Source of the DNA: an uncultured Lachnospiraceae bacterium
GTDB taxonomy: Bacteria > Bacillota > Clostridia > Oscillospirales > CAG-272
Direction: 5' to 3'
Length of the DNA: 52,937 bases
NCBI GenBank assembly: GCA_964456045.1
Contig: CAYWAD010000001.1
Location: 1-52,937 of the forward strand
Shown: piece by piece, positions 38,101 through 45,708 of the stretch
Layout of the letters: every line of letters starts with the position of its first letter
How positions within the stretch are numbered: position 1 is the stretch's first letter
Made by a program: the position numbers and the translations under genes
Notes under the pieces: generated by a model
Database searches by the model: none
Seen by the model: only the letters and a program-made list of their open reading frames with translations
Told to the model about the DNA's origin: nothing

Positions 38101-38127
38101 AGACAATAACTTATATTTTGTATAATG

Positions 38128-38997: not shown

Positions 38998-39139
38998 AAT
39001 AAACAAGCCTCCGAAAGTTTGATTTGCGTTCATTATATCACAGAAATTAACGCTTTTCCACTTATTTTAACGAATTTGAAAAAAATATGTGTGAAATTTC
39101 GAATTATACGACCGAATCGCCTCATCAGCACTTCTCTGA

Positions 39140-39167
39140 ATTATACAAAATTTGCATTTTGTATAAT
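39140..39167. repeat. Perfect 28-bp palindromic site (11-6-11 layout) at the left prophage junction, candidate dif-like/attL
   Basis: ATTATACAAAA-TTTGCA-TTTTGTATAAT. Arms pair over 12 bp around the centre TTGC. Its right 17 bp are the direct repeat. Confidence 0.6.
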
Positions 39168-40121
39168 GGGAGATAGAGTTTCCCACTCGAACAAATCGAG
39201 CCATACCGGCGAAATCTTGTCGTGATGAGAACCATATTCGTGTACTGCGTAGAAATCGAATATGTATCGAAGGACTGATTCTGCCGAATAATTTTCAGCG
39301 AACAAAAGATCATAAGGGATTGAACGCTCTTTGCGATGACGAGTTTGAAGCTCGATTCTGATCCAGCTATCCGGCAAAGATCCATCAGATGTATAAGGAC
39401 AAGAATTTAAGTCGTTTTTAGCAATTCGTTCAAGCTTTTTGTCGTAGAAACGAATCATTTGTTGTGAGCTTGTAGTGCCAAAATATATAGTGTGTTCTTT
39501 GTCACCATATTTTACGCGCCAAGAAACACTACGATTTGAACCATGACATATTATATTCGAATTATCAATATGATGTTGTTCGCAAAGATTATGAAGATCT
39601 TCAACAAAAGATCCGGAATAATTTACAAAGTCATAGGCAAAGTCGCAGCGGGTGAAATGGAAATTCCATCCCATATTAGGAATATAGCGAATTTTTTCTT
39701 CAACATCGTATCGCTGAGATCTGAGCCAATCTAAACCAGATCCACACAGATCTATGCGAATCCATGATAAATAGCAGTGCGCGATAAACATAGGGTCATA
39801 ATTTTTAGGATCAGTCACGCGCTGACCATATTCTTTATCAAGTTGCCAGTCAATATCACGAGGTTCAAGCTCAAAGAGAATCCCGTGCAGATTTATGCGG
39901 AGTTTGCGTCCGTAATTAGGATCAGCGAAATAGGAATCGCGGACAGCTGCGAAGAAATCTTCATTCAAACCAATTCCAAAATATTTGAGGATATCGACAA
40001 ACGATTGATCGCGCACAACGATGGTGAGCCAGTCGATTTTATAAAAGACACCGCCCTCACCATTTTCTATTTTGCGCAGAGTGCGATCAGAATATTCATT
40101 ATGTGATTTAACAGAATTCAT
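39141..40121 (-). CDS. Rolling-circle replication initiation protein (Rep_trans family-like), apparently 3'-truncated by the integration junction
   Basis: Motifs FTRCDFAYDF, IRFYDK, RIELQTR typical of replication initiation factor/Rep_trans proteins. ATG 40121 lies 6 nt after GGAGG. The last 3 codons (NFV*) lie left of the repeat. Confidence 0.7.
   Translation of the reverse strand: MNSVKSHNEYSDRTLRKIENGEGGVFYKIDWLTIVVRDQSFVDILKYFGIGLNEDFFAAVRDSYFADPNYGRKLRINLHGILFELEPRDIDWQLDKEYGQRVTDPKNYDPMFIAHCYLSWIRIDLCGSGLDWLRSQRYDVEEKIRYIPNMGWNFHFTRCDFAYDFVNYSGSFVEDLHNLCEQHHIDNSNIICHGSNRSVSWRVKYGDKEHTIYFGTTSSQQMIRFYDKKLERIAKNDLNSCPYTSDGSLPDSWIRIELQTRHRKERSIPYDLLFAENYSAESVLRYIFDFYAVHEYGSHHDKISPVWLDLFEWETLSPIIQNANFV
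39151..39167. repeat. 17-bp direct repeat, left copy (candidate attL core)
   Basis: tttgcattttgtataat is identical to 45692-45708. Confidence 0.65.
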
Positions 40122-40122
40122 A

Positions 40123-40374
40123 TTAAACCTCCGAAGAAGAATTAGAAGCAAGCTTTTTTTCTTGGAAAACACGTGTACGTTCGAGCCAACGACTATAAAA
40201 ATCAAGGTCACGCTTCAAAACTCTGTAGAAACACATCGGAAGCTCGATAAGGGCATAATCATTTTCGTCATATGGAACAAGACTAATTTCACAAGTTTTC
40301 TTAAAAAAGCCATCGTTCATTGGGGAAACCATTCCGTGAGAATCAGTACGCAAGTCATAAATTTTTTTAGACAT
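40123..40374 (-). CDS. Phage hypothetical protein (83 aa) upstream of rep
   Basis: AGAGGTG RBS. The stop lies immediately before the rep ATG. First ORF after the consensus promoter. Confidence 0.5.
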   Translation of the reverse strand: MSKKIYDLRTDSHGMVSPMNDGFFKKTCEISLVPYDENDYALIELPMCFYRVLKRDLDFYSRWLERTRVFQEKKLASNSSSEV

Positions 40375-40468
40375 ATTAAACACCTCTTTTTTTATAGTTG
40401 AAAGCCAAGGAAGTGCAAAGAGGCAAAAAACACTTGGAATAGTGTGCACTTCCCTGCTTTCTATGGAT

Positions 40469-40497
40469 ATTATAGCATATTTTTTTCTAAATTGCAA
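40469..40497 (-). promoter_or_regulatory. Consensus sigma-A-type promoter for the rep operon
   Basis: Minus strand TTGCAA-17 nt-TATAAT (-35 at 40492-40497, -10 at 40469-40474). Downstream, a 9-bp inverted repeat ggaagtgca/tgcacttcc (40409-40417 / 40445-40453). Confidence 0.55.
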
Positions 40498-40578
40498 CAC
40501 TTTTCACAAAAAAAATAAGTGTTTTTGGATATTTTTTTTAAGTAAACAAGGACAATAGAACATCTTCAGAATGCGCGC

Positions 40579-40685
40579 AGGCTCTCCGAGCCTACTACCT
40601 TCCTGACTGGTGATACATTCACAGTCAGGAAAAGAAGCCGGGCTTCGCTCGGATGAACACCCCCCCTTCCCCCCCTCAAGGGGGG
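40579..40685. other. Structured non-coding region of the phage (stacked hairpins), candidate origin/packaging signal
   Basis: Hairpins aggctc-tcc-gagcct (40579-40593), ttcctgactg-12 nt-cagtcaggaa (40600-40631), gaagc-cgg-gcttc (40634-40646), and C7-TT-C7-TCAA-G6 with CCCCCC/GGGGGG pairing (40660-40685). Confidence 0.5.
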
Positions 40686-40695
40686 AAAAAGAAAC

Positions 40696-40771
40696 AATAA
40701 ACCTCGATTGGGATAATAGGGATTTCAAGAGCTTCCCGAAGCCGGTGCAGCATTATTTTCGTTTACAGCGT
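40696..40771. repeat. Inverted duplicate (76 nt, 75/76 identical) of an internal segment of the zot-like gene
   Basis: Reverse complement of 41323-41398, single mismatch at 40762. On the plus strand it encodes INLDWDNRDFKSFPKPVQHYFRLQR. Confidence 0.9.
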
Positions 40772-40998
40772 TTTTAGCTGTTTAAGGTCAAAAAAAATAA
40801 CCGGCTAACAAACCGATTATTTTTTTTATTATATTTGCTTGATAGTCGAAGATTCTTTAGCTACACCAATCAAGCATATCCGGCGGTATTCCGACCGTCG
40901 AAAACTTGCGAAAAAGCGTTTAGAAAGCAAAAAAGCAAAAGGCAGCGTGCTTTTTCTCGTTTCCGGCGGTCGGTGGGATCTATTGATCAAATGGCAGC

Positions 40999-41757
40999 TC
41001 ACTTAGAAAGATCGAGCTTAGCTCGTTCTTGTTGATCTCGATAAGAGCGATTTTTCTTGACCCAGTGAGGGAGAAAAGCGCGGAACGGTGATGATCTATA
41101 CCAGAACAGCCAGCTTTGCTTGACGAAATCATCAGTTAAATTAGCAGTGTCACGCGAATTGTCATTTTGAGGACTAACGACTACCGGCTTTTTTCGATAT
41201 GCTTTACCGGTTATATATACGCGGAAATATTTGCGAATTATAATTAAGTAATCTGCGAGATCGCGAATTTTCTTATCACAATCGTAAGTTTGCGAAAAAG
41301 CTATGTAAATGTGCTTATATTGACGCTGTAAGCGAAAATAATGCTGCACCGGCTTCGGGAAGCTCTTGAAATCCCTATTATCCCAATCGAGGTTTATTTC
41401 ATCGTGCAGTATAACGGAATTTGGTTCAATGAATTCAGGACCAGTATATCCTCTTTCACGAAGTTTTATAATTTTTTTTCGAACATTATCATCATAATAA
41501 GCTTCGGCAAGCCAAGGAAGCAGATTTATATCTATAGGAACGACAAAAGAAAGATCGCAATCGCCTAATTTACAATAAACATTGTAGCCCTTTTCGTTAT
41601 AGTGGGTAGCAAGTTTTTGAAGCATCGTAGACTTTCCCTCGCCTTTCGGAGCAAAAATCAAGTAAAGCTTATAGGGGTTAATATATTTTGATGTAAGTTT
41701 ATTAAAAACAAAACCGATCGAGAAAATCGAGAGGAAAAGAATAAGCAGAATTTTCAT
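40999..41757 (-). CDS. Zot/pI-like P-loop NTPase (filamentous phage assembly protein)
   Basis: N-terminal TM, Walker A APKGEGKST, Walker B VILHDE. 252 aa. Positioned last in the structural/assembly module. Confidence 0.6.
   Translation of the reverse strand: MKILLILFLSIFSIGFVFNKLTSKYINPYKLYLIFAPKGEGKSTMLQKLATHYNEKGYNVYCKLGDCDLSFVVPIDINLLPWLAEAYYDDNVRKKIIKLRERGYTGPEFIEPNSVILHDEINLDWDNRDFKSFPKPVQHYFRLQRQYKHIYIAFSQTYDCDKKIRDLADYLIIIRKYFRVYITGKAYRKKPVVVSPQNDNSRDTANLTDDFVKQSWLFWYRSSPFRAFLPHWVKKNRSYRDQQERAKLDLSK
41323..41398. repeat. Partner of the 76-nt inverted repeat, inside the zot-like CDS
   Basis: See 40696-40771. The spacer between the copies is 551 nt. Confidence 0.9.
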
Positions 41758-41804
41758 ATTTTGCGTTGTTTTTTCGGCACGACATAAAGTCGTGCCGGTA
41801 TGGT

Positions 41805-41978
41805 TTATTTTTTAATGTATACAAGAAGCTTAAAGAGAAAAACGAGGAACAAAGAGAGAGTACAGATAAGAAAAGCGCAAGCTACAAGCGCGAAAAAATC
41901 GTATGTAGAAGCGCGAACAGGTTCAACGCCTATCAGTTCCATTAGAGTATGAGCCAAGCCAGAAGAGAGAATTTTCAT
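41805..41978 (-). CDS. Phage small hydrophobic protein (57 aa)
   Basis: Not in the ORF track (under 60 aa). ATGA overlap with the upstream stop. C-terminal TM FFALVACAFLICTLSLFLVFLF. Confidence 0.45.
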   Translation of the reverse strand: MKILSSGLAHTLMELIGVEPVRASTYDFFALVACAFLICTLSLFLVFLFKLLVYIKK

Positions 41979-42439
41979 AAAAACAACCTCAAAGTCAGAA
42001 CAACAAGAATCACGATAAGGATTAGAACTATAAAGCTGGAAGAATCAATACCCGATCCAGGGATCAAGCCATTTTCGGGAATTAAATGATAGTCAACCCA
42101 TGTGTTATAGGTATATCCGGAGCGAGTATAGCTTTGATAGATCTGAAGCTCACAAAGTGAAGAAAAACGAATATCGTACTCATTAGATCCAATCTTAGCG
42201 TATCCATTAATTACCGAATTAGAAATATTAAAAAGATATCCGGAATCGGTAAGGCATAAGCCATCATAAGAATCTAAATAAAATTCAATATCTCCGGAAA
42301 GCTTAGTGACATCATATGATGAGTTAACATAAGCAATTCTTCCCTGCCAAATATCAACGGTATTTGGATCTACCCATGAACCGAGGCATATAACAACAAT
42401 AAACGTTAAAATCAAAAAAGAGAAAAAATAGAATTTCAC
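41975..42439 (-). CDS. Phage secreted/anchored protein (154 aa), minor coat candidate
   Basis: N-terminal signal/TM and C-terminal TM (FIVLILIVILVVLTL). GTGA overlap with the upstream ORF. Confidence 0.55.
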   Translation of the reverse strand: MKFYFFSFLILTFIVVICLGSWVDPNTVDIWQGRIAYVNSSYDVTKLSGDIEFYLDSYDGLCLTDSGYLFNISNSVINGYAKIGSNEYDIRFSSLCELQIYQSYTRSGYTYNTWVDYHLIPENGLIPGSGIDSSSFIVLILIVILVVLTLRLFL

Positions 42440-42591
42440 TTAGAACCTCGTATGTAAATGATTGAAGTCACTATTATATCAAGCAAAACTAAATATAAGA
42501 AGCATTGAGTAATCCAATGCTCATTAAGCATATTAACATATGCCTTAATATAAGTCAAAGCAGCCGAAAAAACAGAGCTTAGAGAACCCAT
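42436..42591 (-). CDS. Phage small membrane protein (51 aa)
   Basis: GGAGG lies 5 nt before ATG 42591. One TM helix. The longer 92-aa ORF version is rejected. Confidence 0.45.
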   Translation of the reverse strand: MGSLSSVFSAALTYIKAYVNMLNEHWITQCFLYLVLLDIIVTSIIYIRGSK

Positions 42592-42593
42592 AG

Positions 42594-42734
42594 CTACCTC
42601 CGCAGGCATAAGCAAACCATCCAAACAAGGAGAGTTGAATAGAAAAGCACAGAAAAAAAAGTTATCCCCGGGATAATAGTTATATTCAGCATTAACCAGA
42701 TATAATCGACGCAAAGATCAACAAATTCAAGCAT
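42594..42734 (-). CDS. Phage small membrane protein (46 aa)
   Basis: GGAAGGTG RBS 6 nt before ATG 42734. Hydrophobic. Packed between neighbouring ORFs. Confidence 0.4.
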   Translation of the reverse strand: MLEFVDLCVDYIWLMLNITIIPGITFFSVLFYSTLLVWMVCLCLRR

Positions 42735-42739
42735 AGAAA

Positions 42740-42955
42740 TCACCTTCCAAAGCAGCGACAGACGATGACAAGCGTTAAACCACAAATAGCAACTGACGCA
42801 ACGGTAGTAGGCATCCATCCGGACGTGGTTGACCGCGAAATAGACCACAAAGCGGAGGAAAACATAGTGATGCCATTTATGAAACCAACGAGAAGATTCC
42901 ACAAATTGGCAATAACATCAACTATATACTCAAAAAAAGAAACAATAGCATCCAT
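42740..42955 (-). CDS. Phage membrane protein (71 aa), pVI-like position
   Basis: Two hydrophobic segments. Follows the 417-aa ORF, as gVI follows gIII in Ff phages. Confidence 0.5.
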   Translation of the reverse strand: MDAIVSFFEYIVDVIANLWNLLVGFINGITMFSSALWSISRSTTSGWMPTTVASVAICGLTLVIVCRCFGR

Positions 42956-42972
42956 ATAACCCCCAAAGGCTA

Positions 42973-44226
42973 TTAGTCGCCGCTGCGGGATTGGCGAACG
43001 ATAGATCTAATAGGAGCACCGAGCACGATCGCCATCAAGCTAAACGAAAGCGGCACAAAAACAAAAGCTTGTCCCAATGAAGAAGAAATTATCAAATCAT
43101 AGATTTGGCGAAGAAAAGAGACCTGTTCTGTATCAAGTTTAAGCAAATACTGATCAAATGCAGTGAGCGATTCAAACTGAGCCAAGCTAAACGAATCCAA
43201 TGCTTGACGTTGTAATTCGGAATAAGAATCCAAAGCATCGACATCATCATCAGAAATTTGATATTCTTCGGACAAAAGCTTAGAATATTCATTTTCGGCT
43301 TTTGTCAAATAAATATCGAAATAATCTTTGATAATCGCCAACTGAAAATAATTTTCGGCAGTTTTCGAAAGCGACAAATATCGATCATAAAGAGTATCAA
43401 CGACGGCAGCATAAGAGAGAGCGGAAGAATAATCTGCTTTGCTCAAGTCGTATTGAAATTTAGTTCGAATAGTCGAAGCAAACGATTCAATGTCATCGAT
43501 CGAATCATAGATCGAATATGTATATTTTTTTAAGTAATCAAGGTCAACGGAAATTTCATTTTCAAGCAAAGCACAAATATTATCAAGAACCGTTTCAACG
43601 CCTGAGAGATCGACATCAGATCCAGACGGAGCAAAAGCATTGATTCCCATATATGCATACAAACTATATCCAGAACTAGATTGTAAGCTCTCTGGAGCGG
43701 TAAGCTGAATAGCGATCTGTGAGCACTGATTTTCAACGGTTATCGAATAACAAGAAACGTCATAAAAAACAGAATCGATGCTCATAGAACAAGTACCGGA
43801 ATTTCGTCCATAATAGATTTTTTCAGAATCAACATAATAAGTCGAGCCGGAAAAATACATTATAGCGTCAACAGAGTAAGAAGCCGGCAAAAACACATCG
43901 ACGATACCGCCGTAAGGCAAATAAACGTTCAAGCAATAAATCAAACTCGTATATGTGGGAAAAGAAGCAAATCCGCCATGGCAAGTATATGAAGAATCGC
44001 CATATTTGACGGATACTGTTTTTCCGGTGAAATAATTCAAGTAAGAGCTGCTAAATTCATCTAAATTAAAACTATTAAAAGGAGTCACATAAGAATTTCC
44101 AAAATAAGCAAGAGCAATAGTCTGACGGTCATTATAAACGACATATTCAGTCACGGCATAAGCCGGCAGAGAAAAAGAAAGGGCTACGATCAATAAGACA
44201 AATAAAGAAAGTAAACGCTTACACAT
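42973..44226 (-). CDS. Phage adsorption/minor coat protein candidate (pIII-like architecture)
   Basis: Signal peptide MCKRLLSLFVLLIVALSFSLPAYA, large Ser/Tyr-rich ectodomain, C-terminal TM anchor plus basic tail. Largest ORF, directly after the coat module. Confidence 0.55.
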   Translation of the reverse strand: MCKRLLSLFVLLIVALSFSLPAYAVTEYVVYNDRQTIALAYFGNSYVTPFNSFNLDEFSSSYLNYFTGKTVSVKYGDSSYTCHGGFASFPTYTSLIYCLNVYLPYGGIVDVFLPASYSVDAIMYFSGSTYYVDSEKIYYGRNSGTCSMSIDSVFYDVSCYSITVENQCSQIAIQLTAPESLQSSSGYSLYAYMGINAFAPSGSDVDLSGVETVLDNICALLENEISVDLDYLKKYTYSIYDSIDDIESFASTIRTKFQYDLSKADYSSALSYAAVVDTLYDRYLSLSKTAENYFQLAIIKDYFDIYLTKAENEYSKLLSEEYQISDDDVDALDSYSELQRQALDSFSLAQFESLTAFDQYLLKLDTEQVSFLRQIYDLIISSSLGQAFVFVPLSFSLMAIVLGAPIRSIVRQSRSGD

Positions 44227-44227
44227 A

Positions 44228-44353
44228 TCAATAAACCCGGATTATTAATCGAGCACAAAGAGCGATAGCAGCTAAGGCGAATACCGGAGCTGTATACGTA
44301 TACAGCTCCGGAGACGTCCAAAGTTTGAGAAGATCAGACAGAAGCTCTAACAT
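44228..44353 (-). CDS. Phage small protein (41 aa) with a hydrophobic C-terminus
   Basis: Hand-translated as MLELLSDLLKLWTSPELYTYTAPVFALAAIALCARLIIRVY*. The stop lies 1 nt before the pIII-like ATG. Contains the 28-bp palindrome. Confidence 0.35.
   Translation of the reverse strand: MLELLSDLLKLWTSPELYTYTAPVFALAAIALCARLIIRVY
44284..44311. repeat. Perfect 28-bp palindrome downstream of the coat gene
   Basis: ccggagctgtatac|gtatacagctccgg. Confidence 0.9.
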
Positions 44354-44358
44354 AAGTA

Positions 44359-44568
44359 TTAGCCTTTAGAGAGCAAGCGTCCGAATATTCCGACAGCTCC
44401 ACCGAGTACAAGAAAGCCAGTGGTAAGGAGAAGAATAGGAGTCGTCGTTATAGTTTCGGCAACATTCCCAGTCCAAGTAAGAGCCTGTGTTACAACAGTT
44501 CCAAGATCAGTAAGAAGTGATGTCATGGTTACTTCGCCAACAACAGCACCAAAAGCGGAAGTAGGCAT
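44359..44568 (-). CDS. Major coat protein candidate (pVIII-like)
   Basis: 69 aa with an amphipathic/acidic N-terminus, TM PILLLTTGFLVLGGAVGIFG and a basic C-terminus RLLSKG. Confidence 0.6.
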   Translation of the reverse strand: MPTSAFGAVVGEVTMTSLLTDLGTVVTQALTWTGNVAETITTTPILLLTTGFLVLGGAVGIFGRLLSKG

Positions 44569-44631
44569 TTTTTTATCCTTTCTTTTTATTTATTTAAGCG
44601 CAAAGCGCAAAAATATCAATGTCATTAATAT

Positions 44632-44796
44632 TTAATAATCGGCAAACAAAGATTTCAAAAGCGAAGAGATTTTAGAAGAATAGCCCATCACTTCACAAAG
44701 AGTATCAATCTCGCGTTCAGAGAGTTGGTGAGTACCAACGTATGAATAAAGAAATTTTAGAAGCTCAATAAAACCCATTTGTTCAGACGACAACAT
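44632..44796 (-). CDS. Phage small protein (54 aa)
   Basis: Hand-translated as MLSSEQMGFIELLKFLYSYVGTHQLSEREIDTLCEVMGYSSKISSLLKSLFADY*. AAAGGG RBS. Confidence 0.4.
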   Translation of the reverse strand: MLSSEQMGFIELLKFLYSYVGTHQLSEREIDTLCEVMGYSSKISSLLKSLFADY

Positions 44797-44801
44797 GATA
44801 A

Positions 44802-44960
44802 TTACCCTTTCTGTTGAGAAATAAGATAGTTATATGCTTTTTCAACCAATTCGTAAGGAAGATTTCGCACAGAAATAAGCTCAGAAATAACACTATCCTC
44901 AAGAGGAATTTCAGAGCAGAATGCAAGTTGTGCTAAAAAAAAACATTCCAAAATGATCAT
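44802..44960 (-). CDS. Phage small protein (52 aa)
   Basis: ATGA overlap with the stop of the 87-aa ORF. Hand-translated as MIILECFFLAQLAFCSEIPLEDSVISELISVRNLPYELVEKAYNYLISQQKG*. Confidence 0.4.
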   Translation of the reverse strand: MIILECFFLAQLAFCSEIPLEDSVISELISVRNLPYELVEKAYNYLISQQKG

Positions 44961-45220
44961 TTTGAAGAATCCTCAAACAAATCATACGATACAGGATATT
45001 TGTCGACATCGTAGAATACGGTGTCGATGAAGTCACCAAGAGTAAGTTTAGCAGCGCGATTAGACTTGCCAGGACGATTCGGGAAGAAGAATTTGCGAAC
45101 CGCAATTCCCTCTTTAATTTTAGAATCATGATCATAGCAATGAATCGTTATTCCGGATACCTCCCTGTGCGAGTACGTTGCAGCTCGTGCAACAGATTCA
45201 ATTCCAATGATTTCGTACAT
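44957..45220 (-). CDS. Phage 87-aa protein in the gV (ssDNA-binding protein) position
   Basis: First well-supported ORF after the internal promoter. AAAGGAAA RBS. Its size and position match Ff gV. No motif-level support. Confidence 0.45.
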   Translation of the reverse strand: MYEIIGIESVARAATYSHREVSGITIHCYDHDSKIKEGIAVRKFFFPNRPGKSNRAAKLTLGDFIDTVFYDVDKYPVSYDLFEDSSK

Positions 45221-45366
45221 AATTTTGATTTCCTTTCATTTTTTACAAGATTTTTCTGTGACAAAGTTAAAGATAGAAGCAATTGATAATTAAGATCTAA
45301 GGCTTTTTTCAAACGATAATAACGTTGAATTTCTTCAGAAGCTTTACGCATTTTATATTTTTTCAT
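45148..45366 (-). CDS. Possible leaderless small basic ORF (72 aa)
   Basis: ATG 45366 lies 6 nt after the -10 box TATAAT. Overlaps the 87-aa ORF by 73 nt. Weak. Confidence 0.2.
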   Translation of the reverse strand: MKKYKMRKASEEIQRYYRLKKALDLNYQLLLSLTLSQKNLVKNERKSKLCTKSLELNLLHELQRTRTGRYPE

Positions 45367-45372
45367 AATTAT

Positions 45373-45400
45373 ATTATAGCTAATAAAAAGGAACTTCAAA
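45373..45400 (-). promoter_or_regulatory. Sigma-A-type promoter for the phage structural module
   Basis: Minus strand TTTGAA-16 nt-TATAAT (-35 at 45395-45400, -10 at 45373-45378). Confidence 0.45.
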
Positions 45401-45408
45401 CAAAAGCA

Positions 45409-45636
45409 TCATGCTAATTCTTCAAAACCTTTCACAAGATACATAGATTTTTTTTCCGAAAAATATAAATAACGTGGCAGCCCTTCCGAAGCAGCGGTCA
45501 ACGAAAGAAGAATACAGGCGAACCGCCGTCGATCAAGCGGCTGATCAGAGCGCTGCAAATTATACCAATCGCAGACGATGCGATTGAGCATTGCATCGGC
45601 GCCAAGGTTTGAAAGAAGAAAAATATGATTTTTCAA
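45409..45636 (-). CDS. ORF without an SD or ATG start, probably the displaced 3' portion of rep, separated by integration
   Basis: The frame stays open upstream through the right 17-bp repeat (..CQIIQNAKYVETYDVLQANYDFFDRNLKNHIF..). The only start candidate is TTG 45636, with no RBS. Confidence 0.4.
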   Translation of the reverse strand: MKNHIFLLSNLGADAMLNRIVCDWYNLQRSDQPLDRRRFACILLSLTAASEGLPRYLYFSEKKSMYLVKGFEELA

Positions 45637-45691
45637 GTTACGATCAAAAAAATCATAATTAGCCTGAAGAACGTCATAAGTTTCGACGTAC

Positions 45692-45708
45692 TTTGCATTT
45701 TGTATAAT
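45692..45708. repeat. 17-bp direct repeat, right copy (candidate attR core)
   Basis: tttgcattttgtataat is identical to 39151-39167. Confidence 0.65.

Follow-up and report, generated by a model that had tools for sequence, protein, structure and literature searches.

A perfectly palindromic candidate dif site of gut Clostridia, occupied by an integrase-less inovirus-like prophage with its attachment site inside the replication gene

The stretch of DNA analysed here (the window) comprises 52,937 nucleotides of contig CAYWAD010000001.1 from an uncultured Lachnospiraceae bacterium (assembly GCA_964456045.1) and harbours an inovirus-like prophage body of 6.5 kb (39168..45691, minus strand), inserted at a short palindrome that is considered below as a candidate dif, the chromosomal site of Xer-family tyrosine recombinases. 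The prophage is set apart by a low G+C content (0.37-0.38, compared with 0.42-0.50 outside), a strong AT skew and the location of all its genes, including every long open reading frame (ORF), on the minus strand. At its left end lies the intact 28-bp site ATTATACAAAA-TTTGCA-TTTTGTATAAT (39140..39167), a perfect palindrome, strictly composed of 12-bp arms around TTGC, in which 5 of the 28 bases are G or C. The 28-mer occurs once in the window and no matches are expected in shuffled sequence, even with three mismatches. Its 6-bp centre and right arm together make up the 17-mer TTTGCATTTTGTATAAT (39151..39167, plus strand), the candidate crossover region, which recurs as an exact direct repeat at 45692-45708, so that the two copies bracket the 6.5-kb element. 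Beyond the repeat the two copies diverge at once, on the left (39150 a versus 45691 c) as well as on the right (39168 g versus 45709 t).

In the terminology of site-specific recombination, the intact 28-mer is the left junction (attL), while the right junction (attR, 45681..45708) is a hybrid composed of a degenerate phage arm, TTTCGACGTAC, the centre TTTGCA and the host arm TTTTGTATAAT. The degenerate arm, which is the left arm of the phage attachment site (attP) as reconstructed, matches the true arm at 5 of 11 positions. Joining the left flank, the core and the right flank rebuilds a host attachment site (attB), A-ATTATACAAAATTTGCATTTTGTATAAT-T, with 13-bp arms, located in an intergenic region with divergent genes on either side; as single-stranded DNA it folds into a 13-bp stem (-9.3 kcal/mol, z = -5.7). 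The junctions predicted for an empty site and for a circular phage with an intact replication gene read ...CTCTGAATTATACAAAATTTGCATTTTGTATAATTTGACAAAC... and ...CCCATTATACAAAATGCAAAGTACGTCGAAAC..., respectively. The identity shared by attP and the putative dif spans 17 bp, or 19 bp in the L19x clade. An earlier note on this DNA, made from its letters, had described the perfect palindrome, the composition of the repeat as centre plus right arm, the longer palindrome of the rebuilt site and the retention of a single arm by attP, all of which proved to be exact. The attR junction of the window is also present in a contig from a different sample (L003), and in three related species an uninterrupted 28-mer lies between homologues of both window flanks. 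Besides the source of the window, sample SRR10277277 carries the prophage.

What the earlier note had missed is that attP lies inside the rep gene of the phage. The rep ORF (39141..40121, minus strand), which comprises the N-terminal 326 codons of a Rep_trans (PF02486) initiator, enters the palindrome and terminates there, its last eight codons (IIQNANFV) and the stop codon being located within it. Circular joining of position 45691 through the core to position 39168 extends the rep frame into a small ORF at 45409-45636 and yields a protein of 417 residues (counted from M31), of which the C-terminal ~94 codons (45409..45691, minus strand) are cut off by integration. Two proteins of 417 residues each (P0001 and P0002) display 79-80% identity to the rebuilt Rep with 100% coverage, and the gene call of the window itself (P0003, 326 residues) amounts to 78% of the full-length protein. 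With Pfam, the Rep_trans match of the rebuilt Rep stops at profile position 151; its full length was instead established from the homologues. The prophage is colinear, once circularly permuted, with two free contigs (L001, 5407 bp, and L002, 5973 bp), both of which carry rep intact, and the 17-nt core is identical in all three although the neighbouring codons differ. Integration splits rep after residue ~323 and, since attP is situated within the codons for IIQNAK, removes the last ~94 residues of the initiator; the invariant R-Y-D-K of the family (IRFYDKK) is located in the N-terminal part. L002 contains a second, 14-nt copy of the beginning of the core (ATTATACAAAATGC, 1887-1900) just 3' of rep, where the following gene starts; unlike L002, the phage of the window has no equally close second copy.

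The position of the core in rep is conserved across the family. The motif [IV]QNA[KN] occupies it in 23 of 32 aligned Rep homologues (24-80% identity), and CAAAATGCAAA is found at that position of rep in 14 of 29 metagenome relatives. In a clade with 25-27% identity, free forms of ~5-6 kb read TCA ATT ATA CAA AAT GCA AAT TGC GTT, CAAAATGCAAA being invariant and only the outer arm variable, and the prophages of this clade (on contigs of 184 kb and 67 kb) end in ...ATTATACAAAATGCAAATTTTGTATAAT immediately followed by TGAGGGAAGG and then by the host CoaX gene. The same split of rep at the same site is displayed by L175 and L086 (29% Rep identity to the window), and these two prophages, together with L208 and L212 (Reps 25-30% identical), end in the same 28-mer followed by the host extension described below. 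Other Rep clades carry other sequences at the core position, and the junctions in L214 and L220 contain a related host arm, TTTTATATAAT. Comparison of Rep with GenBank phages returned only a distant relative, Dulem virus 64 (27%); its alignment against IMG/VR gave relatives of 23-30% identity only and was not used, and the 55 matches of the 17-mer in IMG/VR, all unrelated by tblastn with Rep, represent chance background.

Two further arrangements bear on the way in which the site is used. In L204 (~700-730), a relative of Rep carries TTTATACAAAATTTGCAATTC (FIQNLQF) at the corresponding position of rep, the arm being followed here by an inverted centre. Such an arrangement predicts integration in the reverse direction, and no such prophage was present among the at least 120 host loci collected. 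On the other hand, a second and unrelated inovirus lineage (L230, 3308-7688; also L223) lies beside a site of the type found in Caproiciproducens, with the centre TATTCA; the inovirus of L230 encodes an intact 397-residue Rep_trans protein with a Rol_Rep_N domain, as well as a protein with a Pfam Zot match, and its attP is located outside rep.

On the host side, the exact 28-mer was found in at least 120 loci from at least 119 assemblies, counted at species level, which are metagenome-assembled genomes of gut Clostridia named Oscillospiraceae, Eubacteriales, Ruminococcus, Flemingibacterium and similar; these genomes are mostly drafts and the scan gives a lower bound. There is one 28-mer per genome, with SVQM01 (L067 and L136, two contigs) as the sole exception among these assemblies; one of its contigs measures 3.7 kb and has low coverage, and the case may reflect a strain mixture, a tandem insertion or a true second copy. 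A Rep phage occupies three of the at least 120 loci. Between loci the flanks of the 28-mer are unrelated, apart from a one-sided, asymmetric extension, TTTYGCTTCCCTNA (consensus of 80 loci; TNAGGGAAGCRAAA on the opposite strand), which in the window reads CAGCACTTCTCTGA (39126..39139, plus strand) and in which the columns over the 80 oriented loci show CTTCCCT at 69-96%. The extension, which reads TNAGGGAAGCRAAA in the sense direction of xerC, is kept whichever gene comes next, also where xerC is not adjacent; apart from it and the centre, the site has no strong asymmetry. With the loci oriented by the centre, the mean GC skew is +0.015 on the extension side and -0.034 on the other; this difference (paired n = 55, p = 1e-4) is maintained to 6-7 kb. 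No motif resembling canonical dif beyond chance was detected in 880 kb around the sites. The earlier note had named a palindrome present in several copies and a canonical dif elsewhere as findings that would speak against a dif; neither emerged from these loci.

Several interpretations of the extension were set aside: that it drives one conserved gene, because the first ORF varies among loci; that the register is shifted, so that the extension would serve as the arm for XerC and TTATACAAAAT as that for XerD, as there is no dyad and the bases after the extension are variable; and that it is a guide sequence similar to the FtsK-orienting polar sequences or SpoIIIE recognition sequences (KOPS/SRS), which was not adopted since the G-rich strand is directed away from the site. 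The bias of gene strands, both in the window and in slices of 8 kb, was too weak or noisy for use. The hint of a replication terminus that the earlier note had drawn from gene orientation is weak, strands in the window being mixed and giving no clear terminus signal.

A link to Xer genes was found in related genera. In Caproiciproducens sp. R1 and R2, C. galactitolivorans and Thermocaproicibacter melissae, as well as in a circular metagenome contig, a XerC-like gene is preceded by the same arms at a distance of 41-44 nt. The sites in Caproiciproducens and Thermocaproicibacter have TGAATA, TAAAAA and TAAATA as centres, and in L235 the XerC-like gene begins 18 nt past the palindrome. The distance between recombinase gene and site is therefore 18-44 nt in L235, L280, L282, L284 and L287, and in all five the stretch from the palindrome to the start codon of the XerC-like gene contains the extension. 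A convergent XerD-like gene follows xerC, directly in Caproiciproducens and past one DUF624 gene in T. melissae. At the site of L230 and L223 (centre TATTCA, with the extension) the XerC-like gene is 434 bp away, with the XerD-like gene next in L230. The XerC-like family corresponds to the proteins annotated as XerC by NCBI in Caproiciproducens, Caproicibacter, Thermocaproicibacter and Oscillospiraceae; its members have 332-352 residues and score higher with XerC, XerD and XerA models than with those of XerS or XerH. Inspection of the sequences shows the R..HxxR..H..Y motifs to be retained in both XerC-like and XerD-like proteins. A regular expression for tyrosine recombinases overlooked two genes truncated at slice ends, which tblastn recovered.

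At these xerC-linked loci nearly all called genes on the left occupy the plus strand (one 59-residue ORF being on the minus strand), genes on the right occupy the minus strand over 7-8 kb, and the local skew flips at the site from +0.07/+0.08 on the left to -0.04/-0.05 on the right (L280, L282, L287 and L288). Five genomes of Caproiciproducens and Thermocaproicibacter each have a single copy of the site within their 21-kb locus. In the finished records CP194790.1 (Caproiciproducens sp. R1) and CP195750.1 (sp. R2) the site lies at 51.7% and 51.3% of the length, opposite the record start, which is presumed to be near oriC. Upstream of Caproiciproducens xerC (L280, 9900-10001, and equivalents), TTGACT stands 17 bp before a TATAAT that is made up of flank and the first two bases of the palindrome. 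With this arrangement, the site would fall in the promoter or leader of xerC, which suggests autoregulation.

The architecture of two arms and a centre recurs beyond the host genomes. A search of IMG/VR for the two arms around any 6-bp centre returned 39 contigs with 32 different centres; when spacers of 0-30 bp were allowed, 59 contigs were found, with a spacer of 6 bp in 39 of the 59 and every other spacer at most four times. Host sites with identical arms likewise show different centres, namely TGCAAA, TGAATA, TAAATA, TAAAAA and TTATTA. From these sequences, the 11-6-11 architecture itself appears to be selected, with a strong preference for a 6-bp spacer. Eight of the IMG/VR contigs (L224, L228, L231, L239, L245, L247, L252 and L256) are fragments of tailed phages with two perfect arms and a 6-bp spacer, embedded in the same flanking context yet with eight different centres; L231 includes terminase and portal genes. 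These arm pairs would be in keeping with multimer-resolution sites of the cer type, which borrow the recombinase of the host and for which a match of the centre is not needed.

How the prophage entered the site can be approached from its gene content. Searches of its ten ORFs against Pfam and PHROGs recognized no recombinase domain, in line with the earlier note, and a scan of the whole window for tyrosine-recombinase motifs was negative. The palindrome is best viewed as a non-canonical dif of the host on which host Xer would act, and the integrase-less filamentous phage as an integrative mobile element that exploits Xer (an IMEX) with its attP in rep, a reading to which we assign a probability of roughly 0.8. 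The 28-bp palindrome would represent a perfectly symmetric type of dif in Oscillospiraceae-type Clostridia, serving as a substrate of a host Xer-family tyrosine recombinase. The phage attP would offer one good arm, a matching 6-bp centre and a degenerate second arm (5-7 of 11 positions across phages), and the host recombinase, acting on attP and dif, would exchange strands at the borders of the centre, leaving an intact dif on the side of the conserved extension, or xerC side, as attL and the hybrid on the other side as attR. Besides catalysis by Xer, the order of strand exchange, the reversibility of the event and the loss of function of the truncated Rep are proposed on these grounds. Precise excision would restore the last ~94 residues of Rep. 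As integration splits rep, the prophage would be replication-silent until excision, which suggests that it is unable to replicate in the integrated state. The adjacent XerD-like gene makes a two-recombinase system possible, and the extension could act as polarity determinant, as xerC leader or as both. Of the proposal made in the earlier note, the insertion of an integrase-less phage into a Xer-type 11-6-11 site is supported, but the site is not a XerCD dif of the Bacillus type.

A number of observations weigh against this interpretation. The palindrome differs from B. subtilis dif and from E. coli dif at 12 of 28 positions each, which agrees with the weak match to the Bacillus type already conceded by the earlier note, and shows no significant similarity to canonical XerCD dif nor, in ungapped comparison, to difH; by the canonical criterion (XerD arm TTATGTNAANT, inner ends ATAA/TTAT) it would not be recognized, since its inner arm ends are AAAA/TTTT. 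Within 8 kb, a tyrosine recombinase gene is absent in the window and in most of the at least 120 loci, and no xer gene is present within the contig of the window's host; the xerC link is borrowed from related genera, and genetic linkage is what ties the recombinase to the site. The perfectly identical arms leave the placement of two different recombinases unexplained. Exact look-ups of the flanking host proteins did not recover an empty site from the same species. The genomes carrying the 28-mer are related, so that their skew values are not independent, and the position at ~51% depends on the record start in finished genomes in which the origins were not located. In addition, extra copies of the arm cluster on the extension side, at -1000 to -500 (47 of 72, 9.5 per 10 kb; L059-L178), and the arms are also perfect extended -10 boxes (TGTATAAT) that face outwards; a transcriptional role of the arms may coexist with a role as dif.

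The extra arm copies are confined to the neighbourhood of the site, none being found beyond +-2.5 kb in ~450 kb of the same loci, and some form inverted pairs (with spacers of 16-17 bp) or tandem pairs. The window contains one exact copy of TTTTGTATAAT without TTTGCA (38116..38126, plus strand), 1024 bp from the palindrome on the extension side. The extra copies could correspond to half-sites resembling those of XerD unloading, to scars of old insertions or to co-regulated promoters. Their interpretation as ordinary promoters was discarded, as their orientation is uninformative (42 sense and 41 antisense) and the word is absent away from the site.

The extended -10 boxes nevertheless lend some substance to an alternative in which the palindrome is mainly an operator with back-to-back promoters, involved for instance in autoregulation of xerC, and the phage gains entry by way of some host recombinase or by recombination where a protein is bound to the DNA. 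The neighbouring genes are mostly transcribed away from the site, where xerC or CoaX is adjacent its 5' leader contains the extension, and the extra arm copies, 0.5-1 kb off, occupy promoter-like positions. However, a promoter requires neither a fixed 6-bp spacer, nor two identical 11-bp arms, nor a single copy per genome, and the absence of the arm word more than 2.5 kb from the site shows that it is not a general promoter word. The coincidence of the skew switch and of gene-strand convergence with the site, the precise insertion there of several recombinase-less phages with identical centres and the persistence of the site without an adjacent xerC are also difficult to reconcile with a mainly transcriptional element. 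The two roles are compatible, and this alternative to a dif is regarded as unlikely. A still weaker case can be made for the 17-bp repeat as a target-site duplication or as the product of homologous or illegitimate recombination, with no dedicated system. Short direct repeats do surround many kinds of insertion, and the element encodes no recombinase, but free phage genomes already contain these 17-19 nt, so that the repeat reflects shared identity and not duplication. Since independent prophages are found at the same nucleotide positions in different species, and 17 bp is too short for efficient RecA recombination, this explanation can practically be dismissed.

A more specific mechanism, related to the alternative of a Rep_trans nick site given in the earlier note, would dispense with Xer altogether: the core would be the plus-strand origin inside rep, and Rep_trans would nick both this core and the extruded host hairpin and join the strands. 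The element encodes no DNA-processing enzyme other than Rep_trans, the core is placed at a conserved position of rep across the family and the rebuilt host site forms the strong hairpin described above. Moreover, the origins of pT181-family plasmids lie within rep, relatives of Rep_trans such as MobT work as relaxases, and the Rep of L230 weakly matches the NCBIfam MobT model. Against this, attP has a single arm and the core is unpaired in the single-stranded DNA folds of three phages, that is, attP forms no hairpin; a nick site specific to one strand could not accommodate the centre of L204, which is inverted at the corresponding position of rep; and the second inovirus lineage (L230) lies at the same type of host site with its rep intact and elsewhere. 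The core is identical among Reps that are 25-30% identical, whereas initiators and origins normally diverge together. The host keeps the site in at least 119 species, yet a Rep phage is present in only three of the loci; the site adjoins xerC in the related genera described above, and an 11-6-11 arrangement with a free centre is the core geometry of tyrosine recombinases. Entry mediated by Rep is thus considered very unlikely.

The reading of the palindrome as a host dif can be carried further, to an undescribed Oscillospiraceae-type dif in which the two identical 11-bp arms double as outward-facing extended -10 boxes, polarity is conferred by the centre and TNAGGGAAGCRAAA only, and the site formed an ancestral self-regulating module with the gene of a long XerC-like recombinase. 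A large family of gut filamentous phages would have placed a half-site within the coding sequence of the initiator, so that Xer-mediated integration, by splitting rep, would turn replication off and excision would turn it on again, a lysogeny switch in no need of a repressor. In this full form the proposal is tentative and is held with less than even confidence.

Filamentous phages that exploit Xer are already known from Proteobacteria. The IMEX phages CTXphi, VGJphi and TLCphi of Vibrio, Cf and XacF1 of Xanthomonas, and Ypfphi use XerCD and dif (PMC4246890, PMC5357621). Like the prophage of the window, they are small and filamentous, have a rolling-circle Rep and no integrase, and insert at a chromosomal dif, which in the window is a candidate; attP has the centre and one good arm, and one junction keeps a functional dif, again a candidate in the present case. 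They differ in that the host is here a Gram-positive gut Clostridium, the presumed dif is a perfect palindrome unrelated to the XerCD consensus and attP lies in the replication initiator gene itself; in contrast to CTXphi, attP appears to be double-strand-like, without a folded single-stranded hairpin. In XacF1 of Xanthomonas citri (PMC5666396) attP is also inside an ORF, which is split by XerCD-mediated integration at dif; the gene concerned is ORF12, a possible regulator, while here it is rep, with a position conserved across Reps of 24-80% identity. What is new is the lineage (gut Clostridia), the type of the presumed dif and the conserved placement of attP in rep.

As regards the site, the closest parallels are xerS-difSL of streptococci and lactococci and xerH-difH of Helicobacter and Campylobacter, which are likewise AT-rich, intergenic, palindromic and near a skew peak, with arms that end in AAAA and TTTT at the centre. 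In those systems the recombinase gene adjoins the site (PMC1914069, PMC2731167, PMC5357621), as it does at 18-44 nt in several of the genera compared here. The XerC-like protein is close to XerS and XerH in size, but its sequence is closer to XerC, XerD and XerA. Unlike in xerS-difSL and xerH-difH, a XerD-like gene is adjacent too, the arms are perfectly symmetric with asymmetry confined to the centre and the extension, and the gene is unlinked to the site in many genomes, including that of the window's host. The properties by which Carnoy and Roten recognized difH (low G+C, intergenic and palindromic, near the skew peak, in single copy, with a variable centre and often beside the recombinase gene; PMC2731167) equally describe the present site, with the adjacent recombinase gene in several genera. 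An atypical dif was also revealed by the attachment site of a mobile element in Legionella (LME-1, with the Legionellales dif/XerL; PMC9765430); lineage, type of element and sequence are different there, and that system was tested experimentally, whereas the present one is known from sequence. Plasmids of the pT181 family share with the prophage a PF02486 initiator and a functional DNA site embedded in rep, which in their case is a nick site in a hairpin; here the embedded site lacks a hairpin, matches a chromosomal site of the host and can have its centre inverted.

The words of the site were not found as dif in the literature searched, and earlier surveys of dif covered Clostridia poorly, with several Clostridium species failed or doubtful (PMC3025954). 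The 28-mer provides a testable candidate dif for a major and mostly uncultured gut group (Oscillospiraceae, Ruminococcus-like bacteria and Caproiciproducens). It may be of use as a terminus landmark in drafts and metagenome-assembled genomes, for finding integrated elements that lack a recombinase and, possibly, as a safe insertion site for genetic tools. If the reading as dif is correct, the range of Xer-exploiting filamentous phages would extend to Gram-positive anaerobes, and the location of attP within rep suggests a simple coupling of the integration state to replication.

The remainder of the prophage is consistent with a filamentous phage in size, one-strand layout and the presence of Rep_trans, its coat proteins being proposed from size. 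In the search of its ten ORFs, Pfam and PHROGs recognized the Rep_trans initiator (PF02486, E = 6e-18) and a P-loop protein. Directly upstream of rep is an ORF of 125 residues (40123..40500, minus strand) with neither a Pfam nor a PHROG match. The P-loop protein (252 residues, 40999..41757, minus strand) contains GEGKST and matches phrog_25712 (E = 5e-18); its gene corresponds in position to the 250-residue gene of L002, and it is a candidate Zot/pI-type morphogenesis ATPase, an assignment that the absence of a Pfam Zot match leaves weakly supported. In L001 and L002, rep is followed by small genes and a 430-residue gene, onward to the Zot-like gene. The counterpart of the 430-residue gene, judged by gene order and size only, encodes a protein of 417 residues (42973..44226, minus strand) whose N-terminal segment is signal-like and whose C-terminal segment is hydrophobic; it has no family match in Pfam or PHROGs and is a candidate for a minor coat or adsorption protein. 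A hydrophobic protein of 69 residues (44359..44568, minus strand), equally without a family match, is a candidate major coat protein by size, position and composition only.

One of the at least 120 loci (L133, 859-7990) contains, at a distance of 7.1 kb from its intact 28-mer, a second copy of centre and arm (TTTGCATTTTGTATAATTG). The intervening DNA carries SpoVAC/AD/AEb-like, flavin-reductase-like and other non-phage genes, and this segment may be a non-phage island captured at the site. Within the prophage of the window, a 76-nt inverted duplication was detected, one arm of which (40696..40771) is 99% complementary to its partner at 41323-41398 inside the Zot-like gene; a piece of this gene has been copied in reverse into the non-coding stretch between it and rep, which may contribute to the greater length of the prophage (6.5 kb) compared with its free relatives (5.4-6.0 kb).

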